A stretch of 64,000 nucleotides of DNA from a virus (Duplodnaviria > Heunggongvirae > Uroviricota > Caudoviricetes), in IMG/VR virus record IMGVR_UViG_3300008108_000013. The stretch is one strand, 5' to 3'. This document shows, piece by piece, positions 2,678 to 33,784 of the stretch (the first letter of the stretch is position 1; every line of letters begins with the position of its first letter). The notes under the pieces were generated by a model. It worked only from the letters and a program-made list of their open reading frames with translations, did no database searches and was not told where the DNA came from. The position numbers and the translations under genes are program-made.

Positions 2678-3400
2678 ATGGATAGATTTTTGAAACACCC
2701 ATCAGATCTTAAATTATCTGATTTACAGAATGTCGATTGGGATGTTATAGAACTAAAACCAACTGTTGACCACAAGGCGTTAATGGAGTGGTATGATCTA
2801 ATGTCTGTTAAATTAGAGCAGGCCAAATGGATTGCATGTGATGAATACGAAGAAAAATATTTCAATCCAGAATTAAAACGTCGATGGTGGGCGGCCAATC
2901 CTAACAAGTATTCCGATAGACCACCATTCTGGTGGTATATGAATTGGCCTTTAGAACGATATGATCCGTTGCCATTTGCATTCCTAGCCAATAAAGAAAT
3001 CTTTCCAGAAGCATTTTCAGACTCATATAATGATCAAGAGAATCCACTTTTAAAAGAATATAACTTTGGTGCGTTTGAAAATCTCTATAACAAATACGGC
3101 AAATACTTACGTGCTATTAGAACAATAGTTCTTCCGGAAGGAGCAGGGTTGGGGCTTCATGTCGACATGCCATATCCTAATGTTATTATTAGATTACACA
3201 TACAGCTAGATGCTAATGAAAATTGTGAATGGCAATTTGGACATGCCGCTGATAGAAGATACGTAATGGAGCCAGGAAAGATGTACTTAGTTAATACTGC
3301 TGTTCCGCATAGTGTAGCAAATTTCGGAGGCCCAGACTGGGTAGTAATTTATGGAACTCCTAACAAAGAAGATATTGAAGAAATGTTAGGATTAGAATAA
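2678..3400 (+). CDS. AspH-like (aspartyl/asparaginyl beta-hydroxylase family) 2OG/Fe(II) cupin oxygenase
   Basis: HxD...H facial triad (LGLHVDMPYPN ... AVPHSVAN). Paralogous to 6558, 8738, 9387 and 14844. Confidence 0.6.
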   Translation: MDRFLKHPSDLKLSDLQNVDWDVIELKPTVDHKALMEWYDLMSVKLEQAKWIACDEYEEKYFNPELKRRWWAANPNKYSDRPPFWWYMNWPLERYDPLPFAFLANKEIFPEAFSDSYNDQENPLLKEYNFGAFENLYNKYGKYLRAIRTIVLPEGAGLGLHVDMPYPNVIIRLHIQLDANENCEWQFGHAADRRYVMEPGKMYLVNTAVPHSVANFGGPDWVVIYGTPNKEDIEEMLGLE

Positions 3401-3401
3401 C

Positions 3402-4232
3402 ATGGCACATTTAAATGTAATAGTTCCTTCTGAGATTGATTACTGGCCTTATTCTTATCCAGATAATCCAGTGTCAACTACTACAGAGTTTGCTGGCCCA
3501 GATAGCCGAGAATTGTACGAAAGAAATTTAAAATACTTACCCCAAGATTGGATTTATCGTAAAACAGATATAGAATATTCCTTTAACAGTAGTAGGTTAA
3601 GAATGAACAAGGATATCGAGAATGTTGATCAATCTTATATATTGTTTAGCGGTACTAGTTATACAATGGGAGTAGGAATTAAAGAAGAAGATCGGTTCTC
3701 TGAAAAAATTAGTAAACAGTTGAATCTGGACTTCATAAACTTTGCAGGTCCTACATATAGTGTTAAAATACAAACAATATCTTTTTTCAATTTATTAAAA
3801 ACAAATCTTCCTCTTCCTAAGGTGTTAGTCGTTGAGTATGCTCCTGAAATAGGATATACCTTTTACAACAATGGAAATTTTGTTTGTGCTAATAAGCCTT
3901 TTTTAAAACACTTGCAAGGACATGATACACAGGCCGATGTTTATAAAACTTTACTCGATACCGATTTCTTTTTTCAAGAAGCAAACATTTATAGAAATAT
4001 GTTGATTGGAACTTGTAAACGGCTTGGAATCAAAATGTTAGAGGTATCCTTTAACATTAACGATAGATTTGTAACTGAAAACGGAATACTTTCCATCGAC
4101 GATGAATATAAAGGTGTTGATATCAGCACAGAGCTTGCTCGAGATGTTAGAATACATAATGGTAATTATTCTGCACATCCGGGAACAGGAATACATCAGT
4201 TGATAACAGATCGACTACTAAAACTAATATGA
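3402..4232 (+). CDS. hypothetical protein, possibly SGNH/GDSL-like hydrolase
   Basis: ILFSGTSYTMGVG (GDSx-like block I) and SAHPGTGIH (DGxHP-like block V). Weak. Confidence 0.3.
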   Translation: MAHLNVIVPSEIDYWPYSYPDNPVSTTTEFAGPDSRELYERNLKYLPQDWIYRKTDIEYSFNSSRLRMNKDIENVDQSYILFSGTSYTMGVGIKEEDRFSEKISKQLNLDFINFAGPTYSVKIQTISFFNLLKTNLPLPKVLVVEYAPEIGYTFYNNGNFVCANKPFLKHLQGHDTQADVYKTLLDTDFFFQEANIYRNMLIGTCKRLGIKMLEVSFNINDRFVTENGILSIDDEYKGVDISTELARDVRIHNGNYSAHPGTGIHQLITDRLLKLI

Positions 4233-4876
4233 GCTCATTGACACTCTTTACATCTGGCAGCACTAAAGAACCAAAAGAAGTTACACATCTTTGGTCAACT
4301 GTTGAGAAGTGCATACTAAGATCAATACAAGAAATAGGTTTAACTCGTTATGACACAGTACTAGATGTCTTTCCGGGAAATGTCATAGCACACTATACAG
4401 TTACAGCCTTTCCGGCAAAATACAGTGGAGCAAGATTAATTACTTCTAACTTTGATCCGTATAACTACATTAAACTATTTCAAAAGTATCAACCTACTTA
4501 TATTGCATTAATTCCTAGACACTATGATATACTGTCAAAGACTAAAGGTTGGAACGAATTAGATATGAGCTGTGTCCGTTATATGGTTATGGGAAGTAGT
4601 AATATCAGCCAATCTACTATAGATACTTTCAGATCCAAGGGTGTACAAACTGTAGCTAACTGGTACGGTATGACTGAAATGCCTCCACCTGTGTTTGTAG
4701 GTTATAATAGTGAATCATTTGATTTTACACCTAGACAAGGCTATACTGTAGAATTTACAGACGAAGGCGAGTGTATAGTTAACGGTGTGTTAACTGGTGA
4801 CTTATTTGATCTTAAGACTAAAAAATTTGTTTCAAGGAAAGTTCAATCTAATGGAAAAACTTGGAAGACAGTTTAG
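4229..4876 (+). CDS. truncated ANL-superfamily adenylate-forming enzyme (mini adenylation core)
   Basis: TSGSTKEPK (A3 P-loop) at residues 8-16, YGMTE (A5) at about residue 147 and TGD (A7) at about residue 198. The protein is only 215 aa and lacks the N- and C-terminal subdomains. ATGA overlap with the previous gene. Confidence 0.5.
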   Translation: MSSLTLFTSGSTKEPKEVTHLWSTVEKCILRSIQEIGLTRYDTVLDVFPGNVIAHYTVTAFPAKYSGARLITSNFDPYNYIKLFQKYQPTYIALIPRHYDILSKTKGWNELDMSCVRYMVMGSSNISQSTIDTFRSKGVQTVANWYGMTEMPPPVFVGYNSESFDFTPRQGYTVEFTDEGECIVNGVLTGDLFDLKTKKFVSRKVQSNGKTWKTV

Positions 4877-5438
4877 AAAATTAGAAGAAAAAGATATTCC
4901 TTCTCTACAGGAATTCTGTGACACTTGTAAAGATCTAGGCTATGTTAATAATCAATCATTTGAAGCTATTAAGTTAGATAAAATGGTAATGCCCTACGGA
5001 CAGTTTTTTGTCGGTGTTGACGATGATAAAATCTTTACCATAGCAGGGGTTCACAGACTGCCTGAGGTAAACGATCGAGCTTGGAGATGTCTTTTTAGAG
5101 GAGCGCAACTTCCTGGGTATACTCCTGCATGGAGCATGGACATATTTAAAAGTGGAATACACTTCAGTCAATTCTTATACCAGCAGATTAAATTTGTACA
5201 AGAACTAGATCCTGATGCAGACTTTTATGTGAGTACCAACGTTCATTCAACTGTAGGTGCTAAGAGCTCTAGAATGAACGATGTTATGATGCCAAGAATA
5301 GCTAAACGTGGTATCTGGACGCTGGCCTTAGAAAACTTCATGCTTTATAATGTTCCGCAGAACCTTTGGAAAATTAACGTTCAGCAGTATATGGAAGCCC
5401 GCGAGCGTTGGCTATCTGGCGAAAGCTGTAGGGATTAA
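4851..5438 (+). CDS. hypothetical protein
   Basis: ORF 4797..5438. The probable start is the MEKLGRQ ATG at 4851, which reduces overlap. No clear motifs; weak GNAT-like resemblance only. Confidence 0.4.
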   Translation: MEKLGRQFRKLEEKDIPSLQEFCDTCKDLGYVNNQSFEAIKLDKMVMPYGQFFVGVDDDKIFTIAGVHRLPEVNDRAWRCLFRGAQLPGYTPAWSMDIFKSGIHFSQFLYQQIKFVQELDPDADFYVSTNVHSTVGAKSSRMNDVMMPRIAKRGIWTLALENFMLYNVPQNLWKINVQQYMEARERWLSGESCRD

Positions 5439-6561
5439 ACAGAGTTTGATTTTCTTGTGGTAAATTAATTTTATCGATCTTATTAAAACTACGCCAATAA
5501 TCTGTGTGATCTAATTTACTAGTTTTAAAATGCAACGAAATAAAACGTCCTAGGTGGGCGTATAACCTACTCCATACCCGATTATACTTTTCAGCTCCTT
5601 GATTATCGTTGAGTAATCTGGCCAGCATTTTAACTGGAGCATGGATAATAAACAACCCTGTTGATTCGAGGGGATCTAAGAATCCTGCACTTAGTCCAAC
5701 CGCTACTACATTTTTCTTCCACGGTTCGGGATTATATTGATTAGAGAATGGAACTTCAAAAATTTTATCTTTCTTTAGGCCTGGAGTCTTTTTAATAAAC
5801 TCATCAACTGCTTGGTCAACACTAACGGCATCTTTGTTAAATGCATAGCCGTTGCCAGTTCGATGATCTAAACTAATTCTCCAACGCCAACCATAATCCA
5901 TTGCATAGGTTTGTGTGTAGTTTGCAGATGGTGCTGTGAAATCTCCAGGACCAGCTACAGCATAATTATTAATTAATCCGTCGTGCTTGACTAAGTTCTG
6001 TCCTAGTGGTTTTCTAATGATAGATCTAAATCCTGTACAATCAATGTATAAATCAGCGGTATACTTACCAGCTCTGCCAACTAAACATTTAACTCCATTT
6101 TCATCTAGTTGAACATCAAGTACATCATCGATGATGTGCTTAACACCTTTTGGAATACAAACAGTATCGCGTAAAGCAATTCCCAATCTAGTAGCATCTA
6201 CGTGATAAGCATGTCTCCACTTTTTAGTAGGCTTAGTTTTTGTTTCTAACCAATGTAACTGTTCTTCGTGTTCCGACTCGTCGAAACAAAAATGGTGCCA
6301 CCACTGATCGTTACCAGTAGTCCAGTTATTATGCTGGATGGTATATTTTCTGATAGCACTACATTTTTCAAAAAGATCTTGTTCAGAGAATCCAACGTCT
6401 TCCAAAAAGTCAACAATACTAGGAACTGTGCTTTCGCCTACTCCGATAATAGGAATATTGTCACTTTCTATGACAGAAATTTTACAGCTAGTTTTATTAG
6501 CAAGATATGCCGCTGCCATCCAGCCTGCACTGCCGCCACCGACTATTAGTATTGTTTTCAT
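5374..6561 (-). CDS. flavin-dependent (tryptophan-type) halogenase
   Basis: N-terminal GGGSAGW FAD-binding motif, GWRWRIS (variant of WxWxIP) and overall halogenase-like length of 395 aa. Confidence 0.75.
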   Translation of the reverse strand: MKTILIVGGGSAGWMAAAYLANKTSCKISVIESDNIPIIGVGESTVPSIVDFLEDVGFSEQDLFEKCSAIRKYTIQHNNWTTGNDQWWHHFCFDESEHEEQLHWLETKTKPTKKWRHAYHVDATRLGIALRDTVCIPKGVKHIIDDVLDVQLDENGVKCLVGRAGKYTADLYIDCTGFRSIIRKPLGQNLVKHDGLINNYAVAGPGDFTAPSANYTQTYAMDYGWRWRISLDHRTGNGYAFNKDAVSVDQAVDEFIKKTPGLKKDKIFEVPFSNQYNPEPWKKNVVAVGLSAGFLDPLESTGLFIIHAPVKMLARLLNDNQGAEKYNRVWSRLYAHLGRFISLHFKTSKLDHTDYWRSFNKIDKINLPQENQTLFNPYSFRQIANARGLPYTAER

Positions 6562-7733
6562 AATCTATATTCTTTATTAATTATATCGTTGACTCTGCCC
6601 ATTGGAATCTTAAACAACAAATGTGTTCTAGTTTTAGACCCTTGATTATGCGTAGCATGAGTTCTTTTCGTATTTATAAGGTAGGCCTTACCTGGTTGTA
6701 GATTATATTTCTTATCTCCAAATATAAAGTAAGATTTTTCGTCTACTTCTATAGGAAAGTGTATTCTTAAATGTGCATCTTTATCAATATGCGGAGGCAA
6801 CATAGAACCAGAAGTATGCGATGTAATTCCAAGTTCTTCAACATCATCAAATGTTTCTAATACCTTTTCGGCGAACCCGAAAACTAAAGGAGTTCTATTA
6901 GTAAATGCAGGTAGCTTTTCATCCTCAGGAGTTGAATCTTTTCCGCTAGGCGGGCTAATTGGTTTACTAGGATTTTTTAAATTACTTAATATACCGTATC
7001 CATGTATTGGGGAGGGTGTATCTAAAGTCCACTCGAGATGTACAAAGTCGTGTTTAACTTTAAAATAGTAGTCAGCTAACTCTTGATAGTTAAATTTAAT
7101 ATTAGGTAGCTCTAGTACATCAAAGTCAAATTGACTTTCATCTAGTAAGTACTCTCGATTTAATATTAAATCAATATCATCTTTATGTAGTTTAAAAATA
7201 AAATGAACTCTATCAGTATCACCTTCATTTTCAACTCCATGAGGTAGAGCTGTATTAATTAGATAGGCATGTCCTTCTTCTAGAACAAAGCTCTCATCTT
7301 CAAATTTAAAATAGCTTTTATCGTTTGCTTTGATAGGTATATGTATCTTAACAAACTCGTCGTTGTCCACATGCATATCGATACGTGTGCCTGGCGGATG
7401 GCCTGCAATTACTGTTTGTCTTACATCTGGAAATGCTTTAATAACTTTACGTGCAAAGCCAAATATCAAATCAGTTGGAACCTTAAAGTCGTTATTTGGG
7501 TGGACTTCGTTATCTTCTTTGACATGATAAGGCGGACAAGGTTTACTTGGATCTTTTAAATTGCTCTGTATAGCCCAGCTATACATATCGGCTACATTAT
7601 GTGTCTTAACATCAAAGTCCTTATCTACAGTCCACTTAAGATGCTGGTAATCGTTAACCACTTGATTGTAGTAATCAAGTAATTCTTTGTAAGAAAATTT
7701 TATATTAGATAATTTTATAACTTTAAAATCCAT
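6558..7733 (-). CDS. tandem-duplicated double AspH-like cupin oxygenase
   Basis: Two complete repeats within one ORF. Each has an N-terminal IKFxYxEL(L/A)DYY segment and an HxD...H cupin core (GHPPGTRIDMHVD..ALPHGVEN and SHTSGSMLPPHIDKD..RTHATHN). Confidence 0.6.
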   Translation of the reverse strand: MDFKVIKLSNIKFSYKELLDYYNQVVNDYQHLKWTVDKDFDVKTHNVADMYSWAIQSNLKDPSKPCPPYHVKEDNEVHPNNDFKVPTDLIFGFARKVIKAFPDVRQTVIAGHPPGTRIDMHVDNDEFVKIHIPIKANDKSYFKFEDESFVLEEGHAYLINTALPHGVENEGDTDRVHFIFKLHKDDIDLILNREYLLDESQFDFDVLELPNIKFNYQELADYYFKVKHDFVHLEWTLDTPSPIHGYGILSNLKNPSKPISPPSGKDSTPEDEKLPAFTNRTPLVFGFAEKVLETFDDVEELGITSHTSGSMLPPHIDKDAHLRIHFPIEVDEKSYFIFGDKKYNLQPGKAYLINTKRTHATHNQGSKTRTHLLFKIPMGRVNDIINKEYRL

Positions 7734-8176
7734 TATACACTCTTTAACATATCATAGACATTACTGTTTATTTCGTCATGTAAAACAGTATTATTAAATA
7801 ATTCACTTATATACATTTCAACTCCTCTGGATCTCGATCGTCCCTTAGCACAATAGATGTGTACTATAGATCCTTGTGGAATAGTTTCAATAAACTTTTT
7901 TAATTCTACTGCTTGTTCTTTGGAACAGGCATGAGCATAAATTATTCTTTGGTCATTATTAAACCAAGGTATAACTTTTAATCCTGTTTTATGTACATCA
8001 TCGAAATATAAATTAATTACGTTTCTATGTTCTTTTTTAAAATAAGGAATTCCGTGTATCCAGCCAGTTGCATTTATACAAATAAAATATTCGTTAAGTA
8101 ACTCAACATTACTGTCGTTGATGTCGGACATGGCCTCTTCAAAGGAGGATCGAGAATATCTTCTAACGTCTAGCAT
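7733..8176 (-). CDS. dual-specificity / tyrosine phosphatase-like protein
   Basis: CX5R P-loop VHIYCAKGRSRSRG with an upstream acidic YFDDVH. Confidence 0.55.
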   Translation of the reverse strand: MLDVRRYSRSSFEEAMSDINDSNVELLNEYFICINATGWIHGIPYFKKEHRNVINLYFDDVHKTGLKVIPWFNNDQRIIYAHACSKEQAVELKKFIETIPQGSIVHIYCAKGRSRSRGVEMYISELFNNTVLHDEINSNVYDMLKSV

Positions 8177-8741
8177 AAAATTCTAAAACACGATTTACTT
8201 TTTCTAATTTTTCGCCTGTTAAAAAATGTTTACCAATAAAGAATTTTAAATCTATATTGGACATTACAGGATTCCTTAACCAAAACTCTATAAGATCCTT
8301 TAGTTGATTTTTACTGATTCCCTCTTTACTATTTGATGTATCTTCAACTTCTGTTATAGTTAAGTGTAGCAGATTAGTTATATCTGTCTTTTTTTCTAAG
8401 GGAATCATCTTACAACGATCTTTTAACTCATGTTTAATTTTTGAATAGGGATCATTTATAGCCTGATAAAAATCTCCCGAAATACTTCCAATGACTAGCA
8501 TATTCGGAACCCACCCATATACATCTTCAAGTAGTTTAATTTGATAATCTTCTACACAGGCGCAATTAATAAACAAGTCTGCTGATCGTGCTTCTTTAAC
8601 TATTTCATCATAGTTGATTGTAAAATCGTATCCTGTAGTTCTACTAAGCTGTACAGTTCCTTCGAACATTTCGAATAACCATTTTCCCAAGAAGTGACTA
8701 GGATTTTCAGAAGACCCGCCGCCGGTCATAACTACTTTCAT
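8163..8741 (-). CDS. hypothetical protein with Rossmann-like N-terminus
   Basis: KVVMTGGGSS Gly-rich N-terminus. No further confident motifs. Confidence 0.3.
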   Translation of the reverse strand: MKVVMTGGGSSENPSHFLGKWLFEMFEGTVQLSRTTGYDFTINYDEIVKEARSADLFINCACVEDYQIKLLEDVYGWVPNMLVIGSISGDFYQAINDPYSKIKHELKDRCKMIPLEKKTDITNLLHLTITEVEDTSNSKEGISKNQLKDLIEFWLRNPVMSNIDLKFFIGKHFLTGEKLEKVNRVLEFYARR

Positions 8742-9394
8742 AGATATAATCCTTTAACATCGTCAGTCCATACTTTTCCATATAAATGTATTCTGTTCGA
8801 ACTACCTTTGTTTTCAACACTATGGGGCAAAGTAGTATTAACTAGATATGCCCACCCAGGTTCCATATGATATTCTTCTCCGTCGATAATCCAATTACTT
8901 TCAAGATTAGTATATATAGGTATGTGTACTCTAATCTTGTCAGGACTGTCTTGATGAGTTATTAACTTAGTTCCTGGTACGTGATCAGTGACTAACCATT
9001 TCTTACTTCGTATAGGCATCGATTGTACAATCTCAAGAGCATAGCCATAAAAGCATTTTCTTGGATTTAGTTTATCATTGTCGTTGTCTTGATACTCTGG
9101 TTTAGCCATTCCTTGCTCAAATGGCTTCGGGCCTGGCTCATCATTACTCCAACAAAGGGTATAGTAGCCTGTATCATCTGGCAATATGTGTCCTGTTGTA
9201 CCAGTCATATCAACGATAGGTTCTTGCCAGACGTGATGATTTTCACCGACTAAAAATTTCCAATCTCGATATTTCGTTTCTAAGTCTTTATACCATTGTT
9301 GCAGTTGTACAGCATCTACCTTAAACCAAGGTTTAACTTTAAATCCAAGATCGACAGAATCAAAGTTCTGTATATACCTTTTCATTTTAGTCAT
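8738..9394 (-). CDS. AspH-like 2OG/Fe(II) cupin oxygenase
   Basis: DHVPGTKLITHQD...RVHIPIYTN...LPHSVEN, the same architecture as 2678. Confidence 0.6.
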   Translation of the reverse strand: MTKMKRYIQNFDSVDLGFKVKPWFKVDAVQLQQWYKDLETKYRDWKFLVGENHHVWQEPIVDMTGTTGHILPDDTGYYTLCWSNDEPGPKPFEQGMAKPEYQDNDNDKLNPRKCFYGYALEIVQSMPIRSKKWLVTDHVPGTKLITHQDSPDKIRVHIPIYTNLESNWIIDGEEYHMEPGWAYLVNTTLPHSVENKGSSNRIHLYGKVWTDDVKGLYL

Positions 9395-10115: not shown

Positions 10116-10153
10116 AATATTTCCTCGGTGATGGAATATTTATTAAATAGAAA

Positions 10154-11188: not shown

Positions 11189-11624
11189 AGAAAATAAAGA
11201 AAAACATAGATCAGTATTCTTCGACGGAGAAAATTATGTCAAGGTGTGGGGCAATACTACTCCGCAGTGGATATCAGAACATGTAAGTATTCTTAATGAG
11301 CTAGTTCCTAACTACGTAATCGAGTATGGCGGCAATTGGATAAAATTTAAAACCGTACAAGGAACACCTGCTAGCGAATTTGATCATACTGAGGAATTTA
11401 TTAACAGAGTCTATAATTTTTGTTTAGAACAAATTGAGAAAACATTGCCGTATGCACACGGTGATTGGGTGTTAAGCAACATAATTATAAAAGAAGATTC
11501 TATGTTTATGGTAGACTGGGATAATGTTGGAATTTACCCTAAAGAAGAAATATATAAAAAACTACACAATGATTTAAAAAGTGCCTTTGGAGAAAAATAC
11601 AAGTATGACACCACAGTCGTTTAG
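11163..11624 (+). CDS. mini kinase, APH/choline-kinase-like catalytic segment
   Basis: HGDWVLSNIII (HGDxxxxN catalytic loop) followed by VDWDNVG (DxD/IDWE-like motif). Only 153 aa. Confidence 0.4.
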   Translation: MQNFMVLIKENKEKHRSVFFDGENYVKVWGNTTPQWISEHVSILNELVPNYVIEYGGNWIKFKTVQGTPASEFDHTEEFINRVYNFCLEQIEKTLPYAHGDWVLSNIIIKEDSMFMVDWDNVGIYPKEEIYKKLHNDLKSAFGEKYKYDTTVV

Positions 11625-16795: not shown

Positions 16796-18104
16796 AAAGC
16801 TCTCCTAGTTCTGGAGTAACATCTAAAATGTTTTGATTGCGGCGCTGGTCGATAACTTTTGTAAATCTAACAAACTCAGGAATACGTTCTTGTGATAGAT
16901 CTTCCTGATCCATGAAGTTTAAAATTGATTTTAGTATAGAAACTGATGCAGACTTTACATTGTCATTTAGATCACTTTCTAAGAATTTGTTAATCCAGCT
17001 ATCGTAATGTAACTTTAATTTATTTCTTATAGACTCTGGATACATCCTAACACTAACACAATATGGTTTGTGTACAGGGTGTGTAGTTATAACAGGTCTT
17101 TTCTCTCTAGAATTAATTTTTTTAAATCCGCTATCAACTAATTTCCACCACATAAATTCCGGCAAGTGAAAAGCATTGTAGGCACTAACAGTGTATGTTA
17201 TATGGACCATAACGTTAGGATTTTGTTGACATATCTCATCTAGCTGTATTAAGTTCTTAAGGGTAGTATTCCATTTAATAGGATATCGTTGATACTCTTG
17301 CATAGACCCCATGCCGTCAACGCTGGCACCTATTCTAACTTGTTTAAACTGTGTCCAAAGTTCTAAAACTTTTTTCGGTAATGATGTGATATTTGTATTA
17401 TATTCTAGGATTATTTTTGAAGCTCGACCAGCGGCAATACACTTTTCTAAGAATAGAGTATGCCTATCTATAATTAAAGGCTCTCCGCCTGCCATGTAAA
17501 CGTGTTCAATATTATTAATTTGTTCTTCTATCTGCTGCCAAAAGAATTCTGACTCGTGCCAGTTGTAATCATCAGTGACAAACCTTCCTTTGTCGTTCCT
17601 TATCAAATGGACCCACCCGTGACTATCTAAGAACCCCTGCTTTTGATCATACGCAACCCAATCCTCATACCACGAGTGGCTGTCTGTTGGCCCGCACATA
17701 CGACAGGCAAGATTACAGGTGTTACCGAATCTTAAATCGTAATAGCGAGTATCTAAGTTTATACTCCCATCATCGTTTGTACTGTTTACTGCATCTTCGT
17801 AAGTAAAGTTCCACTGATCAATTTCGTTAAGACGTCTGCTAGACATACCAGATTCTTCTTCTTGCTGGCATCTTTTACATTCATCACTCCACACACCATT
17901 AATAATATTCTTCCGAATCTCTTTAATCATGATAGCATTTTTAGCATCAACTATAGAATCTTTACCTGCATTAAAGGGTGTTCCATCATCTTTTCTTGCA
18001 GTTCCTTGATTAGGAGTCACGTTGGCTTGGCAACAAACACGCATGTCGCCATTGTTGCGTACTGCTTGATGTATCCAAGGTAAAGGACAGAATGTTTTAG
18101 ACAT
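16788..18104 (-). CDS. radical SAM enzyme, family A (tandem paralog)
   Basis: MSKTFCPLPWIHQAVRNNGDMRVCC, DECKRCQQEE, GNTCNLACRMC, AGGEP and C-terminal QRRNQNILDVTPEL. Confidence 0.75.
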   Translation of the reverse strand: MSKTFCPLPWIHQAVRNNGDMRVCCQANVTPNQGTARKDDGTPFNAGKDSIVDAKNAIMIKEIRKNIINGVWSDECKRCQQEEESGMSSRRLNEIDQWNFTYEDAVNSTNDDGSINLDTRYYDLRFGNTCNLACRMCGPTDSHSWYEDWVAYDQKQGFLDSHGWVHLIRNDKGRFVTDDYNWHESEFFWQQIEEQINNIEHVYMAGGEPLIIDRHTLFLEKCIAAGRASKIILEYNTNITSLPKKVLELWTQFKQVRIGASVDGMGSMQEYQRYPIKWNTTLKNLIQLDEICQQNPNVMVHITYTVSAYNAFHLPEFMWWKLVDSGFKKINSREKRPVITTHPVHKPYCVSVRMYPESIRNKLKLHYDSWINKFLESDLNDNVKSASVSILKSILNFMDQEDLSQERIPEFVRFTKVIDQRRNQNILDVTPELGELFE

Positions 18105-18954
18105 TAAGTAGATACCTCATAAGAGAACTTATTCCCACTAGCTCTCCGCTTCTATCTATAGCTACATGGATAGCCTTAGTCTGAGTTAGATCGAAGTCCC
18201 TGCAGACTTTTTCATTCACGTCAGCATATTTTTTCCAAAAGTAATCTGGTTCAATATTGTTTAAGATATAAAGTGCAACGATTGTGGTCATTCGATTGCA
18301 CATATGAAAGTCATTCATTATGCTAATAGAGTCGGCTTTCTCTTCTTTAGTCCATCTTAAACCAATTCTATTCCAACCCAGTCCTAGACCTTTTGAAAGG
18401 CTGATGCCTAGTGATACAATAGCAGGATGATCAAAATTAAAATCAATTGTGCGGCTACATGTAATCCATGCTCCGTCGACATGCACAGGAATATTTTTTT
18501 TGGCACATTCATCTAAAATTCCATTCATGCCTGTATGAATATCAGCAGTACCTGGAAAAGGTAAAGAAATTATTAAAGGAATTCCGGGGATCAATGTGCC
18601 GGGTATAGATCTTGTAAAAGAATAACCTAATCTTTCGTGATACTTATAATCACCTTCAATTGTCTGTACGTACCCGGACATATATAAATTATCAATAAAC
18701 TGTGTACATCCGTTAATTATATCGACTCTGTTAAAGGTTTCAAGTCCTCTTATTTGATTCAAGGTCGACGCAGTTAACCAACTAATCATTTTATCTTTAA
18801 AAATATTATGTACGTTATCCGTGTGATCAGGCACCCAACCGTTATAACCAGTTAATGTTGAATTAAACAATGACTCAAGATGACTATCGCAAAAAGGTTT
18901 TAATCTACCTTTTTGTAAATAATCTTGAGAATATTCAGGTGCTATTCTTTCCAT
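18097..18954 (-). CDS. PLP-dependent aminotransferase-like protein (short)
   Basis: SLSKGLGLGWNRIG matches the SxSK...GxRxG PLP-lysine region of fold-type I aminotransferases. The protein is only 285 aa. Confidence 0.4.
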   Translation of the reverse strand: MERIAPEYSQDYLQKGRLKPFCDSHLESLFNSTLTGYNGWVPDHTDNVHNIFKDKMISWLTASTLNQIRGLETFNRVDIINGCTQFIDNLYMSGYVQTIEGDYKYHERLGYSFTRSIPGTLIPGIPLIISLPFPGTADIHTGMNGILDECAKKNIPVHVDGAWITCSRTIDFNFDHPAIVSLGISLSKGLGLGWNRIGLRWTKEEKADSISIMNDFHMCNRMTTIVALYILNNIEPDYFWKKYADVNEKVCRDFDLTQTKAIHVAIDRSGELVGISSLMRYLLNV

Positions 18955-20219
18955 TCTAACATCATCTCATAACACTTTGGAAATACTTCTTTCCAATTAA
19001 TATTTTGTAAACTAGACATCTTAAAGAAAAAGTCTTTAAGATCCTTTCGTCCTTGGATTATTTCATCAACGGTTATAGGCATTTTATTTGCGTACAATTC
19101 CCATTGGTTTAATTTAGAAAGTATCTCCGTATCTGTTGTTTTAGATCGTAGATAGACGAACATCCTATTTCTTTGATCCTCAGACAGTAATCCTATATTT
19201 AAATATTTAGGATTCATAACCGGATGACTTACTACACCAGCAAATGTATCTTTATTAATCTTTTTAAAATTCTTATTCTTTAACCAAAGCATCCAATCGA
19301 CTATGTTTTCTAAATTTAAAATCGAAACCGTAGTACTGGTAAAAACAGTAATATTAGCTGGCGTACTGTCAAGTATATCTAAATTCTTTTCTACAACTTT
19401 CCAAGGTGTTGGATATCGTATCGCATGGTTAACATCTGCTGTTCCGTCAACACTGGCACACAACTTAACTATTTTAAAATTTGAAAATAAATTAAAAATA
19501 TAATCGGGTAACACAGTTACATTAATACTATACTCTAATTCAATATCATTGGCAAATCCATTACTAATAAGTGCCTCTAATAAAGCAACGTGTTCTTTAA
19601 CTAGGAATGGTTCGCCGCCACCGAATTTAATCTTTTTAACAAACATCGAATGTTTAGCAACTAACTCGTAATACTCTTTTTGGTTGGCCCAATCAAATAC
19701 CTTTGTGTCGTCGATTGAATATGACACATCATCGATAGAAAAGATACGCTTACCTGTTACCTTTTCTTGTATCTTATACCATTGATTACTTTCTCCAGGA
19801 TAACACATAACACATTGTACGTTACACTTATTACCTAATCGAAGATCTAGGGATAAGATACGGTATTCAGATACTGTGCCGTCAGGGGCAGTGATTGCTC
19901 TAGCGTCTTCTTTGGTAAAATCATACATAGTCGATTCCCATTGATTCCGACTACGTTTACCTGCTTCGCTTTCGATACGACATCGTCTACATTGTTCGGG
20001 CCATTCATTGTTTAAAAATTTAGCACGAACTTCTTTCAACGTTTCGCAATTACTGATATCAAATTTTAAATCGTCAATAGTTAATATCTTTTCGTTCTGC
20101 GTTAACACAGTTTTCTTATTGCCGCCGCTTTGGCTGTGAGAGCATAGTCGCAGATGTCCATTACTTTTAACAGCAATATGACTCCACGGCAACGGACACC
20201 ATTTATCTAAATTGCTCAT
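18942..20219 (-). CDS. radical SAM enzyme, family A
   Basis: MSNLDKWCPLPWSHIAVKSNGHLRLCS, EQCRRCRIES, GNKCNVQCVMC and GGGEP. ATG 20219 is preferred because it matches paralogs; the track start is 20237. Confidence 0.7.
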   Translation of the reverse strand: MSNLDKWCPLPWSHIAVKSNGHLRLCSHSQSGGNKKTVLTQNEKILTIDDLKFDISNCETLKEVRAKFLNNEWPEQCRRCRIESEAGKRSRNQWESTMYDFTKEDARAITAPDGTVSEYRILSLDLRLGNKCNVQCVMCYPGESNQWYKIQEKVTGKRIFSIDDVSYSIDDTKVFDWANQKEYYELVAKHSMFVKKIKFGGGEPFLVKEHVALLEALISNGFANDIELEYSINVTVLPDYIFNLFSNFKIVKLCASVDGTADVNHAIRYPTPWKVVEKNLDILDSTPANITVFTSTTVSILNLENIVDWMLWLKNKNFKKINKDTFAGVVSHPVMNPKYLNIGLLSEDQRNRMFVYLRSKTTDTEILSKLNQWELYANKMPITVDEIIQGRKDLKDFFFKMSSLQNINWKEVFPKCYEMMLEWKE

Positions 20220-21168
20220 TAAACCTATCCACTTCACCGCACTGGCGACTACATTCTTTTAACGGACTATTCTCCCATGTACTTGCAATACTGTTAAAGT
20301 ATCCGCTATCAAAAATTTCTGCTAAACTGTTTTCATGTAAGTTAGGATACTTGCCTATCTTATCCATATAATCTATTCTGTTGGGATGGTTAGGATTAAA
20401 CCATTCGTTGTCTAGCCAACAACAAGGAACAACATTTCCTGTAGCACTAACATACAGACTCTTTTCATTGGCTACTTTACAGGTAATCGCTTTAGATTGT
20501 TCAGACACAACAATTTTCTTGCTTTTATCTGTTGGATACAGTATATGTAATGTACGACCTTCTTTATCTAATACTTGTAACTTGTCTTCTTTGAAACGTG
20601 CTGTGTTCTTTGCTACAAAATGTTTGAACCCCATGCGCTGGCTCAATTCTTTACAAATCTCTACTTGGTGTTTATTGTGTTCGAAAATTAACATATCCCA
20701 AGTTGCTGTTCCACCTTCTTTGATAAACAACTTAGCATTATCAAGAATCTTAACCCAGTCTGTGCCAATGCGGTATAAGGGGTGTGTATCAATAAGCCCG
20801 TCAATACCAAATCGAACATGTACATCTAACTTAGCAAGTCCCTTCCAAAAATTTTCACTCTTAGCGGAACCGTTAGTGTTCATGCTTAATTGTATGTCTG
20901 GATTTGCTGATCGCAAGTATTCAAAAATCTTTAATGTATCCTTAGCAATAATGGGGTCGCCTAAGTTACCACACATATATAACCTGTCTAACTGCTTTAT
21001 AATACCGTCGGGGAACCACTCTTTAAACTGTTCAAGTGTAATCTCGTCAATTGTAATAAAAGGATTTTCAATGCCGCCTTGAATGTTACGGGCACACATA
21101 GGACAACTAGCCTGACAACGACTGGTAACTTCTAAGTGAACTGTCCTAATATCCGTTAGTTTATACAT
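20203..21168 (-). CDS. radical SAM/SPASM-like enzyme (distinct type)
   Basis: TSRCQASCPMC (CxxxCxxC) at the N-terminus. C-terminal Cys-rich region TCKV...PCCWLDNEW...CSRQCGE. Confidence 0.7.
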   Translation of the reverse strand: MYKLTDIRTVHLEVTSRCQASCPMCARNIQGGIENPFITIDEITLEQFKEWFPDGIIKQLDRLYMCGNLGDPIIAKDTLKIFEYLRSANPDIQLSMNTNGSAKSENFWKGLAKLDVHVRFGIDGLIDTHPLYRIGTDWVKILDNAKLFIKEGGTATWDMLIFEHNKHQVEICKELSQRMGFKHFVAKNTARFKEDKLQVLDKEGRTLHILYPTDKSKKIVVSEQSKAITCKVANEKSLYVSATGNVVPCCWLDNEWFNPNHPNRIDYMDKIGKYPNLHENSLAEIFDSGYFNSIASTWENSPLKECSRQCGEVDRFNEQFR

Positions 21169-22168
21169 TCAACTTCCTTTTAGGAATCTTAACCTCTGTC
21201 GGGCAATTACAATATAACTGCTGACAGCGTGTAGTTGTGATTACATCAGGAGTAAACTTTGACTCAAACTCAGGGTCGTATATAGAAAATCTATTAACAC
21301 CACCAAACATATTTCTTGCACCACAGCTACCGCTAATAACACCATCTCGCTCTATAGCAAATCTATCTACGCCCAAGTTACAATCCCAGCCTGTAAAGTA
21401 ATGCCAACCATTTTGAATTACTTTAAAAGTATCAGCCGGTATCTCTTCTCCAGAATCCATAACTACACGCATGTCGGATTTAGAATCCTGGATCCTTCCG
21501 AGATCTCTTTGTTTCTGTATCCACTCTACAGGAGGAATTTTTTTCATCTTCTGTTCAGTATAGGCAATCTGTTCCGGAGTAAATCCTTTTATTTCACCGT
21601 CAGTAAATATAGGTTTAGTCTTTAACACCCACGGTGTAGGATGTGCCTTCATTTTCTCGGCTATCTCAACACAGCGATCCCAGTGTAAAGGATCCATTAA
21701 TACCTGTGCATTGATTAGCACATCAGTATTATAAAACACCCAATCCATTACTTCAATGATATGGTCGACATCCGCAAATTCATTATGTACACTAATACTA
21801 ATATCATCAAAGTACTTTGCATACTCCATCCAGAATCTCATAGTTCTTGATGCGTTAGTAACTATACTAATTTTACAGTCATGATTTTTACTAAAATATT
21901 CTGCAAATTCACCTAGCTCTGGCCATAGACTCGGCTCACCGCCGGTCAAGTTTATACGCACATTTTGTTTGCCAAGATGTTCTTTGTATATCTTTAACAT
22001 ATGGCTGAGATTCTTAGTGACCATATTAAAGTCTGTAGGGAATCGATACTTGCCATCATTACAGCCGTCGTAGCAATAATGACACTTATAGTTACACAAC
22101 GTTCCTATGATGTATTCGATTCTCAAGACACCGTCAAAGTCTTTATTTAAGATTGCTATCGGCTTCAT
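21161..22168 (-). CDS. radical SAM/SPASM-like enzyme, family B
   Basis: GTLCNYKCHYC, LTGGEPSLW, HNEFADVDH and a C-terminal CNLG..SGSCGARN..RCQQLYCNCP. Confidence 0.7.
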   Translation of the reverse strand: MKPIAILNKDFDGVLRIEYIIGTLCNYKCHYCYDGCNDGKYRFPTDFNMVTKNLSHMLKIYKEHLGKQNVRINLTGGEPSLWPELGEFAEYFSKNHDCKISIVTNASRTMRFWMEYAKYFDDISISVHNEFADVDHIIEVMDWVFYNTDVLINAQVLMDPLHWDRCVEIAEKMKAHPTPWVLKTKPIFTDGEIKGFTPEQIAYTEQKMKKIPPVEWIQKQRDLGRIQDSKSDMRVVMDSGEEIPADTFKVIQNGWHYFTGWDCNLGVDRFAIERDGVISGSCGARNMFGGVNRFSIYDPEFESKFTPDVITTTRCQQLYCNCPTEVKIPKRKLNV

Positions 22169-22758
22169 TTCTTACCTATTATCATAAAACGTTTATATAA
22201 CGGTAGATCCAATTCGCCGGAATATAAAATTTGTTCTAGTCCTGATTGCTGTTTAAATTCTTCTAAATCTCGAGCAATACGAACATGTTCCGGAATACTG
22301 TAATTGTTACTCTGTAACACAATTAAACTATCGTGTGGAAGCCCCGATAGCCACAGATCATATTCGTCTTGTGTAATGTGTTCGCAACTAGTGTTAATAA
22401 CAACATCTGCATCACTTCTAATATTACACATATCGGCTGTGATTGCTCTAAACTTACCTTTTTCTAATTCGATCTGATTCATATTATGAGCGATTTCTTC
22501 GCACTCAGGATCGATATCAATACTACGAATATAGTGACAAGGCACATTACTTTGAAATAACATACTCGCTAGTGTTCCAACCCAACCGCCGTGAATATCC
22601 ACACTAACGCTAGAATGTACTAATTCGTCTAAATTATCTATTAACCATTCTTTACTTAATATTTGGCCGCGCCAAAACGCATCCATAGTACGAATAGGAT
22701 CTTTACTGTTTCGTATGGCTCTCATCCAATGATGTAAATGTTCTGTGTCTATTTGCAT
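22165..22758 (-). CDS. hypothetical protein, possibly class I SAM-dependent methyltransferase
   Basis: VDIHGGWVGT (motif I-like Gly-rich loop) and DADVVINTS. Weak. Confidence 0.3.
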   Translation of the reverse strand: MQIDTEHLHHWMRAIRNSKDPIRTMDAFWRGQILSKEWLIDNLDELVHSSVSVDIHGGWVGTLASMLFQSNVPCHYIRSIDIDPECEEIAHNMNQIELEKGKFRAITADMCNIRSDADVVINTSCEHITQDEYDLWLSGLPHDSLIVLQSNNYSIPEHVRIARDLEEFKQQSGLEQILYSGELDLPLYKRFMIIGKK

Positions 22759-23723
22759 TTTGGTATTTTACTATCCGCTGAACTTACGCAACTAGGTGTA
22801 ATACAGCTTTGAGGTTGTTTAAATAATTCAAAGTTATCTAGTGTTCCTAAAGATTGGTCGTGACAACTGTAACTTCTCTTGACCTCAGTTCCCCTAATTA
22901 TAACACTCTGGTATCCTGAATTGCAAGTCCAATTATTAAATTTATTAAAACCAAAAGAATTAAATCTTTCAGCTTGATCGAATAGGTATTCTGTCCCAGA
23001 GTTATCATAAAGAGCAATCTGATAAACATCTTCTCCATTTGACGACTGAGGAAATCCTTCTCTCATTAAATGTAGCATTTCCTCAGTATAACCATCAACA
23101 ATCGCAGTAGCATCTAAAGTACTCTGCGGTTTTAAGGTAACACTTATTCCTCTTTTATGTAGGCGTTCCATGCGTTCATATAATGTATAAAATTGATCTG
23201 GAACCATAACTTGATTAACTGTAAGCAAAACATTTTCATACATTAATTGTAAACACTTGTCTCCGAATTCTTGTTCTTTGGCAAACTCTGCATGGTAGCT
23301 GGCAGTGATACTTCTGCGCTGTAGTGTAGATGTAACACTGGCCCAGTTCTTCCACCAATTAGTTCCAGGACTCAAATTTGTAGTCATGTGAATACTTTGG
23401 TAAGGACTTTCTAAATCTTTTTCTACATGTTTTGTTAGATCTAAAAGGTGTTTATAAGCAGTAGGTTCTCCGCCACTAAAACTCCAATGAAATTCTGTAA
23501 ATCCGTTACGTCTTGCTTGGCGCTTTATCTCATCAACTGTTTGTTTGTAAACATCTAACGGTTGGAAGTCAAGTCGATCACTTCTTGCATAGGGCCAACA
23601 GTACGAACAGTTATAATTACAAAAACGACCTAGTATCCAGCTAACCGAAAACAGAGGTCGATTTAACATTGTTCTTTGTCCAAAACGGACTATTTTTTCG
23701 AATGGAATGGTAGAAAATAGCAT
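22749..23723 (-). CDS. radical SAM/SPASM-like enzyme, family B
   Basis: GRFCNYNCSYCWP, FSGGEPTAY and a C-terminal Cys cluster (CNSG..SCHD..SCITPSC..KCK). Confidence 0.7.
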   Translation of the reverse strand: MLFSTIPFEKIVRFGQRTMLNRPLFSVSWILGRFCNYNCSYCWPYARSDRLDFQPLDVYKQTVDEIKRQARRNGFTEFHWSFSGGEPTAYKHLLDLTKHVEKDLESPYQSIHMTTNLSPGTNWWKNWASVTSTLQRRSITASYHAEFAKEQEFGDKCLQLMYENVLLTVNQVMVPDQFYTLYERMERLHKRGISVTLKPQSTLDATAIVDGYTEEMLHLMREGFPQSSNGEDVYQIALYDNSGTEYLFDQAERFNSFGFNKFNNWTCNSGYQSVIIRGTEVKRSYSCHDQSLGTLDNFELFKQPQSCITPSCVSSADSKIPKCK

Positions 23724-33752: not shown

Positions 33753-33776
33753 GTTCTTTTGGGTTTTCTGCTATAG

Positions 33777-33784
33777 TATAAATA
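33777..33784 (+). promoter_or_regulatory. T4-type late promoter TATAAATA
   Basis: Exact TATAAATA 25 nt upstream of the GTG start of the second ClpP gene. Confidence 0.45.

Follow-up and report, generated by a model that had tools for sequence, protein, structure and literature searches.

Our best explanation for an enzyme-dense island in a freshwater T4-like myophage is that it may encode a modular pathway that tailors a carbohydrate-type substrate step by step through radical and oxidative chemistry, a reading that we hold with low-to-moderate confidence (a probability of about 0.4). The core of the island, three unstudied radical-SAM (rSAM) families and a methyltransferase-like protein, is shared by uncultured phages, in their thousands, and by predatory bacteria of the Bdellovibrio type. 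The window is the whole 64,000-nucleotide stretch of viral DNA analysed here; genes are called by their first coordinate.

A tailoring island at a phage hot spot

The island (2678 to 23723) is located at a fixed hot spot of its carrier phage, flanked by rIIB, DNA ligase, and T4-like baseplate/fibre-like genes. The original prediction of a phage island dense in tailoring or biosynthetic enzymes is upheld, and no match to a characterised LPS, capsule, or queuosine cluster was found. Its 24 open reading frames overlap their neighbours or leave gaps of a few bases, and its G+C content is 0.33 to 0.37, versus 0.40 to 0.45 in the remaining window. The tight overlaps described earlier are real, but some, with certain choices of start codon, run past the given maximum of 35 nt, and the genes lie in four strand blocks rather than three. 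Overlaps inside the blocks suggest co-translation. Because the island was assembled independently in at least six samples, with identical gene order across ENA, JGI, NCBI, and Logan assemblies, a chimeric artefact is excluded. Two elements mark its surroundings:

2628 to 2676, plus strand: terminator-like hairpin with a T run after it (AATCCCTAG...CTAGGGATTTTTT, read from the sequence); left border
23800 to 23911, plus strand: tRNA-like element with ∼40 extra bases, just beyond the island (Rfam tRNA 27.3 bits, E 7e-4, below the gathering score of 29)

Synteny across the right border extends to phage contigs L090 and L093-L095. For the tRNA-like gene claimed at 23800, ARAGORN made a call at a lowered threshold but not at default.

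Three families of radical-SAM enzymes

The island encodes eight rSAM proteins, and a ninth is found at 38120. Profile searches confirmed their identity: Pfam Radical_SAM matches 10154, 13939, 15500, 16788 (28.9 bits, slightly short of the 29.5 cut-off), 18942, 20203, 21161, and 22749, and NCBIfam NF033640 gives 243 to 430 bits (cut-off, 170) for 10154, 15500, 16788, 18942, and 38120. CX3CX2C and GGEP had been reported for all nine; the former is present in 9/9 and the latter in 8/9, with 20203 as the exception. Judged from their sequences, the island rSAMs represent three mutually unrelated, uncharacterised SPASM/twitch-type families with predicted auxiliary-cluster domains: A, with an N-terminal twitch; B, short, with a C-terminal Cys cluster; and C, with a C-terminal SPASM.

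10154 to 11188, plus strand: family A, N-terminal twitch (NF033640 243 bits; Pfam Radical_SAM E 1e-14)
13939 to 14844, minus strand: family B, CNYxCxYC and C-terminal Cys cluster, paralogue of 22749 and 21161; core cassette (Pfam E 1.3e-11)
15500 to 16795, minus strand: family A, core copy (NF033640 430 bits)
16788 to 18104, minus strand: family A (NF033640 373 bits)
18942 to 20237, minus strand: family A (NF033640 281 bits)
20203 to 21168, minus strand: family C, C-terminal SPASM; core cassette (Pfam Radical_SAM E 3.3e-9, SPASM E 1.9e-6)
21161 to 22168, minus strand: family B; core cassette (Pfam E 7e-12)
22749 to 23723, minus strand: family B, most conserved island gene, anchoring the right border (Pfam E 3.7e-13)
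38120 to 39499, plus strand: satellite family A (NF033640 335 bits; Pfam weak)

Oxygenases, halogenase, and other island proteins

2678 to 3400, plus strand: AspH-type cupin, 2OG/Fe oxygenase-like (Pfam PF05118 E 1.2e-5, 25.6 bits, over cut-off)
3402 to 4232, plus strand: weakly SGNH-hydrolase-like protein (solved structures, family-profile matches to SGNH esterases, E 0.012-0.17)
4229 to 4876, plus strand: truncated ANL (AMP-binding) core, 215 aa (Pfam PF00501 E 1.5e-17)
4797 to 5438, plus strand: conserved ANL partner, weakly GNAT-like (solved structures, family-profile match to GNAT 3t9y, E 0.0018)
5374 to 6561, minus strand: flavin-dependent halogenase, short form, 395 aa (Pfam Trp_halogenase E 2.9e-86)
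6558 to 7733, minus strand: two AspH-type cupin domains in one protein (Pfam PF05118 E 3.2e-23, two stretches matched)
7733 to 8176, minus strand: Cys-based PTP/DSP-type phosphatase-like protein (CX5R motif visible in the sequence)
8163 to 8741, minus strand: protein with a Rossmann-like N terminus (motif VVMTGGGS only)
8738 to 9394, minus strand: AspH-type cupin (Pfam PF05118 E 3.3e-11)
9387 to 10115, minus strand: AspH-type cupin (Pfam PF05118 E 8.6e-8)
11163 to 11624, plus strand: small kinase-like protein (HGDxxxxN...D motif and weak Pfam matches)
11581 to 12822, plus strand: PYG-repeat protein, eight P-Y/R-G units (period ∼48 aa)
12812 to 13963, plus strand: paralogous repeat protein (BLASTP against 11581, E 3e-8)
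14844 to 15503, minus strand: divergent AspH-like cupin; core cassette (hhalign against the island AspH family, 96.3%, E 1.8e-9)
18097 to 18954, minus strand: PLP-enzyme-like protein with fold-type-I motifs (D-x-A and S-x-S-K; alignment invariants D160, S185, and K188)
22165 to 22758, minus strand: class I SAM-dependent transferase fold, methyltransferase-like, without a Pfam family; core cassette

Most of the enzyme calls in the original prediction were borne out. Five genes indeed carry six AspH-type domains, by Pfam Asp_Arg_Hydrox for 2678, 6558 (twice), 8738, and 9387 and by profile-profile comparison for 14844, whose family is seen in 17 viral loci with invariant HxD...H residues. The flavin halogenase aligns its catalytic Lys with solved enzymes (E 5e-53 to Trp halogenases) and is missing their C-terminal substrate module. 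The ANL core is minimal, as proposed: its Pfam match is restricted to profile positions 168-346 of 384, without the N-terminal third and C-terminal subdomain, and the same length is kept in L029-L036. Its 4797-type partner adjoins the ANL gene in five loci; the 4797 start codon is uncertain, and public gene calls use 4827 or 4851. The CX5R phosphatase assignment gained family-profile matches among solved structures, to PTP-like phytase (E 1.6e-4) and to many DSP P-loops. The mini-kinase drew weak Pfam matches (RIO1, choline kinase, and APH; E 0.003-0.01), and in the aminotransferase-like 18097 the D-x-A and S-x-S-K motifs are conserved, but matches to solved structures (aminotransferase and ACC-synthase, E 0.019-1.3) are not significant. 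Pfam and PHROG searches with 3402, family profile searches with 8163, and family searches with 11581 gave no significant match. Both predicted PYG-repeat proteins are present (∼400 aa each, 48-aa repeat); they may be beta-propeller-like and were found in phage loci only.

A core cassette recurs in phages and bacteria

The core cassette, consisting of 22749, 22165, 21161, 20203, 15500, 14844, and 13939, turns up again, in varying gene order, in 31 IMG/VR loci. The two proteins with the highest conservation, 22749 and 22165, belong to families of 4,890 and 4,686 metagenome clusters, and no 22749 homologue was found in 50,697 GenBank phages. Around this core, sub-modules move independently: a family A rSAM with the PLP-like protein, ANL with the GNAT-like protein, the kinase-like with the repeat proteins, and the halogenase alone, which occurs in 1/9 related loci. 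The rSAM/PLP-like pair is kept in both phages and bacteria, with 16788 as the partner adjoining 18097-like genes in phage and Bdellovibrionota loci.

Separate movement of sub-modules, together with gene order shuffled between lineages, lower G+C, and four strand blocks, could also reflect a hot spot that gathers independent enzyme cassettes with unrelated targets. We regard this as unlikely: the core set co-occurs in phages and bacteria sharing only ∼50% identity, the cluster numbers of the 22749 and 22165 families are nearly equal, and within-block overlaps suggest co-translation.

The 46 cellular orthologues of 22749 (∼50% identity), mostly from Bdellovibrionota and some on 2-3 Mb chromosomes, form a clade apart from the phage clade. 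The Bdellovibrionota loci additionally hold 20203-like, 15500-like (45-50% identity by tblastn), 22165-like, and 18097-like genes, and the core orthologues are interleaved with GT-A-type glycosyltransferase (GT) genes, usually directly adjacent. GT2 and ArnT/PMT_2-like genes border the cluster, and a divergent GT2-like family, in which PF00535 matches 3/20 members (best E 6.9e-7), adjoins the transferase gene. GT-like genes occur in 25/40 long genome loci and 8/18 long viral loci, and in 24/30 genome loci carrying both, <150 bp separates them from the closest rSAM gene. Neighbours in related loci include carbamoyltransferase-like (read by eye), SGNH-like, and PP-loop/Asn-synthase-like genes, which are typical for glycan tailoring. 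Glycan tailoring, originally named as an alternative, fits these comparative data better than a RiPP pathway.

No glycosyltransferase, sugar-nucleotide, or polysaccharide-export gene was found in the island or its closest relatives (L029-L036, L090, and L093-L095); therefore, the GT link rests on remoter phages and the ∼50%-identical bacterial orthologues. Peptides and cofactors, too, count among the acceptors of GT2 enzymes.

The same neighbourhoods bear on nucleic-acid hypermodification, in which phage DNA or tRNA would be altered to evade host defences. QueC-like PP-loop ATPases lie close to the cassette in 19 loci, PTPS and ThyX genes occur near it in related phages, the tRNA-like element abuts the island, and family B partially and weakly matches viperin, QueE, and MoaA models. 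Those matches, however, span the generic rSAM core only, far under family cut-offs; DpdA/TGT, FolE, QueD, and QueC homologues were not found among 49 scanned window ORFs; and the bacterial orthologues are surrounded by envelope-type, not DNA-modification, genes. We consider this explanation very improbable.

Protein, small-molecule, or carbohydrate substrate

Modification of a ribosomal product remains a strong rival to the carbohydrate reading, possible if somewhat doubtful. The rSAMs, AspH-type hydroxylases, transferase, and halogenase would install cross-links, epimerisation, formylglycine-type oxidation, hydroxylation, or methylation on a virion fibre/baseplate protein, a host protein, or a precursor peptide whose gene lies elsewhere in the genome. 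Proteins or peptides are the usual targets of characterised AspH, SPASM-rSAM, and NRMT-like relatives, which counts against a carbohydrate. The Pfam AspH family takes its name from a protein Asp/Asn hydroxylase, and the 22165 transferase model also matches the N-terminal protein methyltransferases NRMT1/2 and NTM1. Candidate targets exist in a fibre-like Gly/Thr-rich protein directly upstream of the island (1481 to 2605) and in Gly/Thr-rich proteins after the 22749 orthologue in locus L077 and in Ralstonia phage RsoM2USA; beta-hydroxylase operons have been predicted to modify tail-collar and collagen-like proteins (PMC2938197). Yet fibre-like proteins are inconsistently linked to the cassette (6 among 1,401 ORFs), and GT-A genes beside the bacterial orthologues stay unexplained unless the target is a glycoprotein.

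The RiPP-like version of this idea, raised originally, fared worse. A small-ORF scan of 83 loci found no precursor-like ORF conserved with the cassette, in agreement with the earlier remark that no precursor peptide was evident, and family searches found no RRE/PqqD, leader peptidase, or exporter family. Because precursor peptide, RRE domain, and peptidase were all not found, a classical RiPP cluster is not supported, and we rejected it. The PYG proteins, once suggested as substrates, are ∼400-aa repeat proteins confined to few phage lineages, which speaks against them as precursors. These results also weigh on protein modification in general.

A small molecule other than a carbohydrate, for example a cofactor-like compound, modified lipid, or halogenated secondary metabolite, would suit the combination of multiple distinct rSAMs with a methyltransferase, a pattern of cofactor/lipid pathways, as well as the ANL fragment and halogenase. 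An amine-oxidase flavoprotein and, as read by eye, tandemly arranged fatty-acid-desaturase-like genes are found in related loci, and secondary-metabolite synthesis was proposed for the dioxygenase/halogenase arrays of cyanophage Syn9 (PMC2938197). This origin seems improbable, since neither a carrier protein nor an NRPS, PKS, terpene, or fatty-acid synthase core was seen, the desaturase-like arrays are limited to one phage sub-lineage (L019-L023), and the halogenase is in just 1/9 related loci.

Under the carbohydrate reading, the core enzymes would act serially on a single scaffold, most likely a sugar, nucleotide-sugar, or cell-envelope/virion glycan. The core rSAMs would abstract H at unactivated C-H positions, leading to oxidation, epimerisation, dehydration, or alkylation, and accessory modules would decorate the scaffold afterwards. 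The family A rSAM/PLP-like pair may convert an alcohol via a ketone to an amine, the route taken by BtrN and BtrS. AspH-type cupins would hydroxylate, the 22165 transferase methylate, and 11163 and 7733 handle phosphates. Attachment of an acyl or aminoacyl group would fall to the ANL fragment and its GNAT-like partner, and halogenation to the short halogenase. Module gain and loss among related phages could then generate product diversity, as expected of a surface structure selected in phage-host recognition or superinfection exclusion.

Comparison with known systems

The system had been called undescribed, which is true in part. Multi-rSAM T4-like phages, pelagimyophage rSAM cassettes, and cyanophage dioxygenase/halogenase arrays have already been noted (PMC5332604, PMC7029224, and PMC2938197), and none was assigned a function in the literature found. 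In pelagimyophages, the rSAM cassettes lie within the host-recognition cluster, alongside many LPS glycosyltransferases (PMC7029224). New here are the three rSAM families, the recurrent core cassette, its metagenome abundance, and the Bdellovibrionota orthologues beside GT-A-type genes. RsoM2USA, whose gp349 is 41% identical to the satellite rSAM at 38120, groups a transferase gene, a GT-like gene, a family A rSAM gene, and another GT-like gene in one operon.

Island layout and genomic context

Twenty-four ORFs fill positions 2678 to 23723 of the window, with almost no space between genes (named here by their start coordinates). They form four strand blocks, at 2678-5438 (+), 5374-10115 (-), 10154-13963 (+), and 13939-23723 (-), rather than the three co-oriented blocks of the original prediction. 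The G+C content is 0.33 to 0.37 in the island versus 0.40 to 0.45 elsewhere in the window. By sequence similarity, the flanking genes, namely, rIIB, a fibre-like protein, a DNA ligase, UvdE, and a 4,087-aa ORF resembling gp7/short-tail-fibre genes, mark the phage as a T4-like myophage.

Features around the island
323-1351, rIIB, left flank
1481-2605, fibre-like protein that over 42 residues shares 71% identity with a tail fibre of a Pelagibacter phage
flank of the island, ATP-dependent DNA ligase
23800-23911 (+), tRNA-like element
31608-32405 (+), Band_7/SPFH protein
33132-33752 and 33810-34385 (+), two ClpP paralogues in tandem
36373-37062 (+), Bax-inhibitor-1 family protein
44176-45195, UvdE UV endonuclease, upstream of the 4,087-aa ORF
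45764-46678, DUF6492 protein, upstream of the 4,087-aa ORF
47906-60169 (+), 4,087-aa ORF with patchy likeness to cyanomyovirus gp7 baseplate/short-tail-fibre genes

Similarity of the 4,087-aa ORF to the cyanomyovirus genes covers just 11 to 20% of its first 2,000 residues. The run of membrane and proteostasis genes at 31608-37062 (+) is unusual for a phage; Band_7 and Bax-inhibitor-1 genes also adjoin the conserved gene cassette described below in related phage contigs (L093 to L095).

Bases 1 to 24000 have no DNA-level match among GenBank phages by megablast, and an exact look-up of the halogenase sequence returned 14 contigs. The original prediction would have been refuted by read-level evidence of a chimeric assembly; a chimera is ruled out because gene order is identical in at least six independent assemblies (ENA, JGI, NCBI, and Logan). 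The phage is also represented by a 110-kb ENA contig (ERZ27247984, k141_1763368). Scans for sigma-70 promoters and terminators gave counts at or below chance expectation, and a motif scan found no enrichment of the T4 late-promoter motif TATAAATA.

The tRNA-like gene predicted at 23800 scores below the standard thresholds of Rfam and ARAGORN. It has a flawless acceptor stem, T arm, and CCA end together with ∼40 extra bases, among them a strong hairpin of 9 bp. Its Rfam score is 27.3 bits, just under the gathering score of 29, and ARAGORN makes no call at its default threshold; only at a lowered threshold is it read as tRNA-Gly(acc) with an ad hoc 33-nt intron.

Nine radical-SAM proteins in three families

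Profile searches support the radical-SAM (rSAM) identity of eight island proteins and of 38120, a satellite copy outside the island. All nine had been predicted to carry both CxxxCxxC and GGEP; CX3CX2C occurs once in each, and GGEP occurs in eight. Seven exceed the PF04055 cut-off of 29.5 bits. Below it are 16788, with 28.9 bits, and 38120, with 23.2 bits, for which the NF033640 scores are 373 and 335 bits, respectively. By motif and profile, the nine proteins are members of the radical SAM superfamily and are predicted to cleave SAM.

All-against-all BLAST and NCBIfam split them into three families. Family A (NF033640) comprises 10154, 15500, 16788, 18942, and 38120, which score 243 to 430 bits against a cut-off of 170 bits and have a twitch domain that precedes the rSAM core. 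In Pfam, the SPASM match covers residues 3 to 86, before Radical_SAM, and CX12GX4C...CX2C can be read in the 15500 sequence. Family B (13939, 21161, and 22749) consists of short proteins marked by CNYxCxYC and by a Cys cluster conserved at the C terminus, and family C (20203) has a C-terminal SPASM domain. The placement of the SPASM/twitch-type Cys domain ahead of the core in family A reverses the usual order.

Family A genes with the reversed domain order
10154-11188, rSAM
15500-16795, rSAM
16788-18104, rSAM
18942-20237, rSAM
38120-39499, rSAM, satellite copy

NF033640 is a curated family of uncharacterised function. Searching solved structures by sequence with the three families gave generic core matches only, and RiPP-maturase equivalog models scored just 15 to 47 bits, against cut-offs of 300 to 720.

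The RiPP-like pathway originally proposed is not supported. Pfam and NCBIfam found no PqqD-like RRE, leader peptidase, or exporter in any island protein, and no precursor peptide gene was found, with almost no intergenic space in the island and no small ORF conserved alongside the cassette in the 83 loci compared. Nor did support emerge for the suggested substrates, i.e., PYG-repeat or virion proteins. No characterised cluster for LPS, capsule, or queuosine matches the island either: among its proteins, profile searches found no sugar-nucleotide synthases, Wzx/Wzy, or ABC exporter and no FolE, QueD, QueE, QueC, or TGT.

Other island enzymes

Profile searches bore out the catalytic signatures claimed for the island, to differing degrees. 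The six AspH-type domains expected in five genes are all accounted for: four genes with five domains exceed the PF05118 cut-off of 22.6 bits, and 14844 is a divergent member detected by hhalign (96.3%, E 1.8e-9). The HxD...H triad is invariant in the family alignments, including 14844. Triad and profile thus place the island cupins in PF05118, and hydroxylation is predicted; this family also takes in the lipid A hydroxylase LpxO.

The flavin halogenase at 5374-6561 (-) matches Trp_halogenase (PF04820) at E 2.9e-86. It has the FAD-binding motif (GGGSAGW), a catalytic Lys that aligns with that of solved halogenases, and a WxWxIP-type motif, GWRWRIS, in which Ser replaces Pro. The protein is 395 aa long, versus 497 to 554 aa in solved tryptophan halogenases; an internal insert of ∼50 aa is missing, as is the C-terminal helical substrate module, with alignments stopping near residue 420 of the solved targets. 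Judged by its sequence, it is not a canonical tryptophan halogenase, and since it is short and lacks the substrate module, free tryptophan is an unlikely substrate.

Two predicted enzymes held in part. The minimal ANL core contains the AMP-binding stretch, as a conserved 215-aa fragment spanning PF00501 positions 168 to 346 of 384, but Pfam found no AMP-binding_C match and it does not make a complete ANL enzyme. The methyltransferase-like protein 22165, hereafter the transferase, matches no Pfam family; its structure, predicted from a shallower alignment of database homologues, is a class I SAM-dependent transferase fold (pLDDT 92). The model has the Rossmann-like seven-strand fold and Gly-rich SAM loop expected of a class I SAM-dependent methyltransferase. 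Its fold matches are generic class I methyltransferases, with no pointer to a substrate. Matches to spermidine and nicotianamine synthases, a hint of aminoalkyl transfer, were not significant.

The CX5R phosphatase-like protein (7733) matches PTP-like phytase and dual-specificity phosphatase P loops (E 1.6e-4). For the mini-kinase (11163), we found the motif and weak matches only, and for the aminotransferase-like, PLP-like protein 18097, D-x-A and S-x-S-K motifs accompanied by nonsignificant aminotransferase matches. Motifs and weak matches further suggest a GNAT-like protein (4797) and an SGNH-like protein (3402), both new here. The two PYG proteins (11581 and 12812) have eight units with a period of ∼48 aa, which equals propeller-blade spacing, and we infer a propeller-like fold.

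A conserved core with exchangeable modules

A core set consisting of 22749, 22165, 21161, 20203, a 15500-type family A gene, 14844, and 13939 recurs, in shuffled order, in 31 IMG/VR loci. The remaining island genes behave as accessory modules that are gained and lost between loci.

Accessory modules
AspH cupins with the phosphatase-like gene
kinase-like gene with the repeat proteins
ANL fragment with 4797
family A rSAM with the PLP-like gene
halogenase, in one of nine related loci

The 22749-type gene keeps a constant border position, divergent from a conserved eIF-1a-like/Metallophos/Band_7 block. At 90% identity, its family comprises 4,890 clusters and that of the transferase 4,686. None of the 120 members listed for either family carries a specific functional name; those of the transferase are "hypothetical" or unnamed, and those of 22749 have generic rSAM labels only. 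By tblastn, 22749 has no match in 50,697 GenBank phage records, and the sole GenBank-phage match of the transferase is to the Ralstonia jumbo phage RsoM2USA. Our searches turned up neither a close solved structure nor an assigned function for any of the three rSAM families or the methyltransferase-fold family. The feature is real and is more than was originally seen, as the island exemplifies a conserved, unstudied cassette of very high abundance.

Other genes accompany the cassette in places. Four tandem paralogues resembling membrane fatty-acid desaturases (His boxes, by eye) lie beside it at L019 12823-15751 and L020 15222-18150 and in L022 and L023, and are confined to the one phage sub-lineage to which these loci belong; near them is an ORF that looks IscU-like by eye (L020 19926-20306). 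Fibre-like proteins were also considered as companions of the cassette, without consistent support.

A bacterial counterpart

A search of one genome per species found 52 genome loci, mostly in Bdellovibrionota MAGs and none from a cultured isolate; several are on chromosome records of 1.6 to 3.0 Mb, and ORFs read by eye in the flanks of two of them (L047 and L055) are ordinary housekeeping genes. The bacterial loci hold orthologues of 22749 (46 to 51% identity), 20203, and 15500, together with numerous additional paralogues of families A and C; in many there are also orthologues of 18097 and of the transferase, the latter often fused to an N-terminal extension. On a neighbour-joining tree, 46 "genome" sequences separate from 27 viral ones, arguing that transfer between phage and bacterium was not recent.

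Two loci stand out. In L038, a MAG labelled Crocinitomicaceae, the 22749 homologue groups inside the viral clade, with 76% identity, and the contig therefore probably comes from a phage and was misbinned. In L047, on a complete Bdellovibrionales chromosome (OZ241848.1), the 22749 orthologue at 10001-11092 looks split or N-terminally truncated, with no other cassette gene within 10 kb; possible explanations are a pseudogene and a long-read frameshift.

Glycosyltransferases and other neighbours

Interspersed among the bacterial rSAM genes are those for GT2 glycosyltransferases and for a protein resembling ArnT/PMT_2. Of the long loci, 25 of 40 in genomes and 8 of 18 in viruses contain GT-like genes, usually <150 bp from an rSAM gene and in some loci abutting or overlapping it; no GT gene is present in the island of the window or in those of its closest relatives. 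One recurring neighbour family is divergent and GT2-like (PF00535 match in 3 of 20 members, best E 6.9e-7; no relative among solved structures). The others are carbamoyltransferase-like (by eye), SGNH-like, PP-loop/Asn-synthase-like, and B12-rSAM proteins and more AspH cupins.

In RsoM2USA (L092, MG752970.1), an operon at 12950-20554 (gp347 to gp355) has every gene annotated as "hypothetical." Its products are the transferase, a pair of GT-like proteins, a family A rSAM protein 41% identical to the satellite copy 38120, two further proteins judged GT8-like by eye, and one rich in Gly and Thr. The gene set of this operon is shared with a Bdellovibrionales MAG locus (L077 8296-14235).

The only recurrent small ORF, present in five loci, encodes a conserved basic peptide of 30 to 34 aa with the consensus MFNWFRTIYIKIKYRKKLKELSKRSPFIYR.

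Loci encoding the basic peptide
L029 3570-3662
L031 2431-2523
L032 2181-2273
L035 4506-4598
L070 20625-20729

In the four phage loci, the gene directly following it encodes a B12-binding rSAM protein, and the peptide may be a precursor or leader peptide. The B12-rSAM family has no match in the window.

A candidate tailoring pathway

Taken together, the enzyme families, the conserved core, the modularity of the accessory genes, and the GT linkage in relatives lead us to favor, at a probability of roughly 0.4, a stepwise tailoring pathway whose scaffold is most likely of the carbohydrate type. By means of 5'-deoxyadenosyl radicals, enzymes of the three rSAM types would oxidise, epimerise, dehydrate, or alkylate one scaffold at unactivated positions. 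A family A enzyme and its PLP-like partner, by analogy with BtrN and BtrS, could turn an alcohol into an amine via a ketone. Further decorations would come from the cupins, the transferase, the kinase/phosphatase pair, the ANL/GNAT-like pair, and the halogenase. Module turnover among related phages is consistent with diversifying selection acting on a surface structure.

The main rival, which we hold to be somewhat doubtful, is that the enzymes modify a protein such as a fibre. The biochemical pedigree of SPASM rSAM, AspH, and NRMT-like relatives speaks for it, as does the fibre-like gene adjoining the island, but no conserved substrate gene has come to light. We regard it as less likely that the pathway acts on a non-carbohydrate small molecule or on nucleic acid, or that the island is a "grab-bag" of unlinked genes.

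The core cassette is common to uncultured aquatic T4-like phages and predatory Bdellovibrionota and is wholly uncharacterised. Speculatively, its three rSAM families and transferase might make a new class of rSAM-tailored surface structure, an envelope glycan or a modified adhesin, that governs predator-prey or phage-host recognition, with the accessory modules as a diversification toolkit. The cassette is conserved across very common uncultured phages and predatory bacteria; its product, once worked out, would bring new radical chemistry into enzymology and explain why lytic phages devote 10 to 20 kb to this cassette, a point that bears on "auxiliary" genes within hypervariable islands. With RsoM2USA, a cultured phage is available for experimental work.

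Comparison with known systems

In mycofactocin synthesis, the rSAM-SPASM protein MftC works with the GT2 protein MftF and the methyltransferase MftM. The island shares with mycofactocin and RiPP maturase clusters SPASM-type rSAMs and a methyltransferase, whereas GT2-type glycosyltransferases appear only in its relatives; unlike these clusters, it has no precursor peptide, RRE chaperone, peptidase, or exporter in profile searches and the 83-locus ORF comparison.

Twitch/SPASM rSAMs that act on sugars or cyclitols include BlsE, SpeY, AprD4, DesII, and BtrN, which, with the aminotransferase BtrS in 2-deoxystreptamine synthesis, takes an alcohol through a ketone to an amine. The island resembles these systems in having rSAMs with an auxiliary-cluster domain and in pairing a family A twitch rSAM with a PLP-like enzyme. 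Sequence identity is just 9 to 19%, however, the family A twitch domain is N-terminal, and no scaffold genes for aminoglycosides or nucleoside antibiotics are present.

Among phages, one of the three closest descriptions is that of the cyanophage Syn9 gp49-gp54 arrays (Iyer et al. 2010, PMC2938197), which have no known product and have been read as a tailoring pathway. Both reside in T4-like aquatic myophages and combine tandem, distantly related 2OG/Fe oxygenases with a Trp-halogenase-family gene. The oxygenases of the island are AspH-type cupins rather than classical 2OGFeDO or JmjC proteins, the halogenase is a rare accessory among island relatives (1/9 loci), and the Syn9 description names no radical-SAM enzymes, whereas an rSAM cassette is the conserved core of the island.

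Pelagimyophage host-recognition clusters combine rSAM cassettes with LPS genes (PMC7029224), and a T4-like marine viral genome carries 12 rSAM genes (PMC5332604). These phages share with ours multiple rSAM genes in flexible regions and, in some relatives, Fe-S assembly genes near rSAM genes (an ORF IscU-like by eye in four viral loci). The island follows rIIB and the fibre-like gene rather than lying between VrlC and gp14; both reports give the rSAM genes as lists. None of the three papers defines families, a core cassette, or a bacterial counterpart or assigns a function. We class the island as, in kind, a flexible-island tailoring enzyme array of phages, for which three rSAM families, a core cassette, and a bacterial counterpart are newly defined here.
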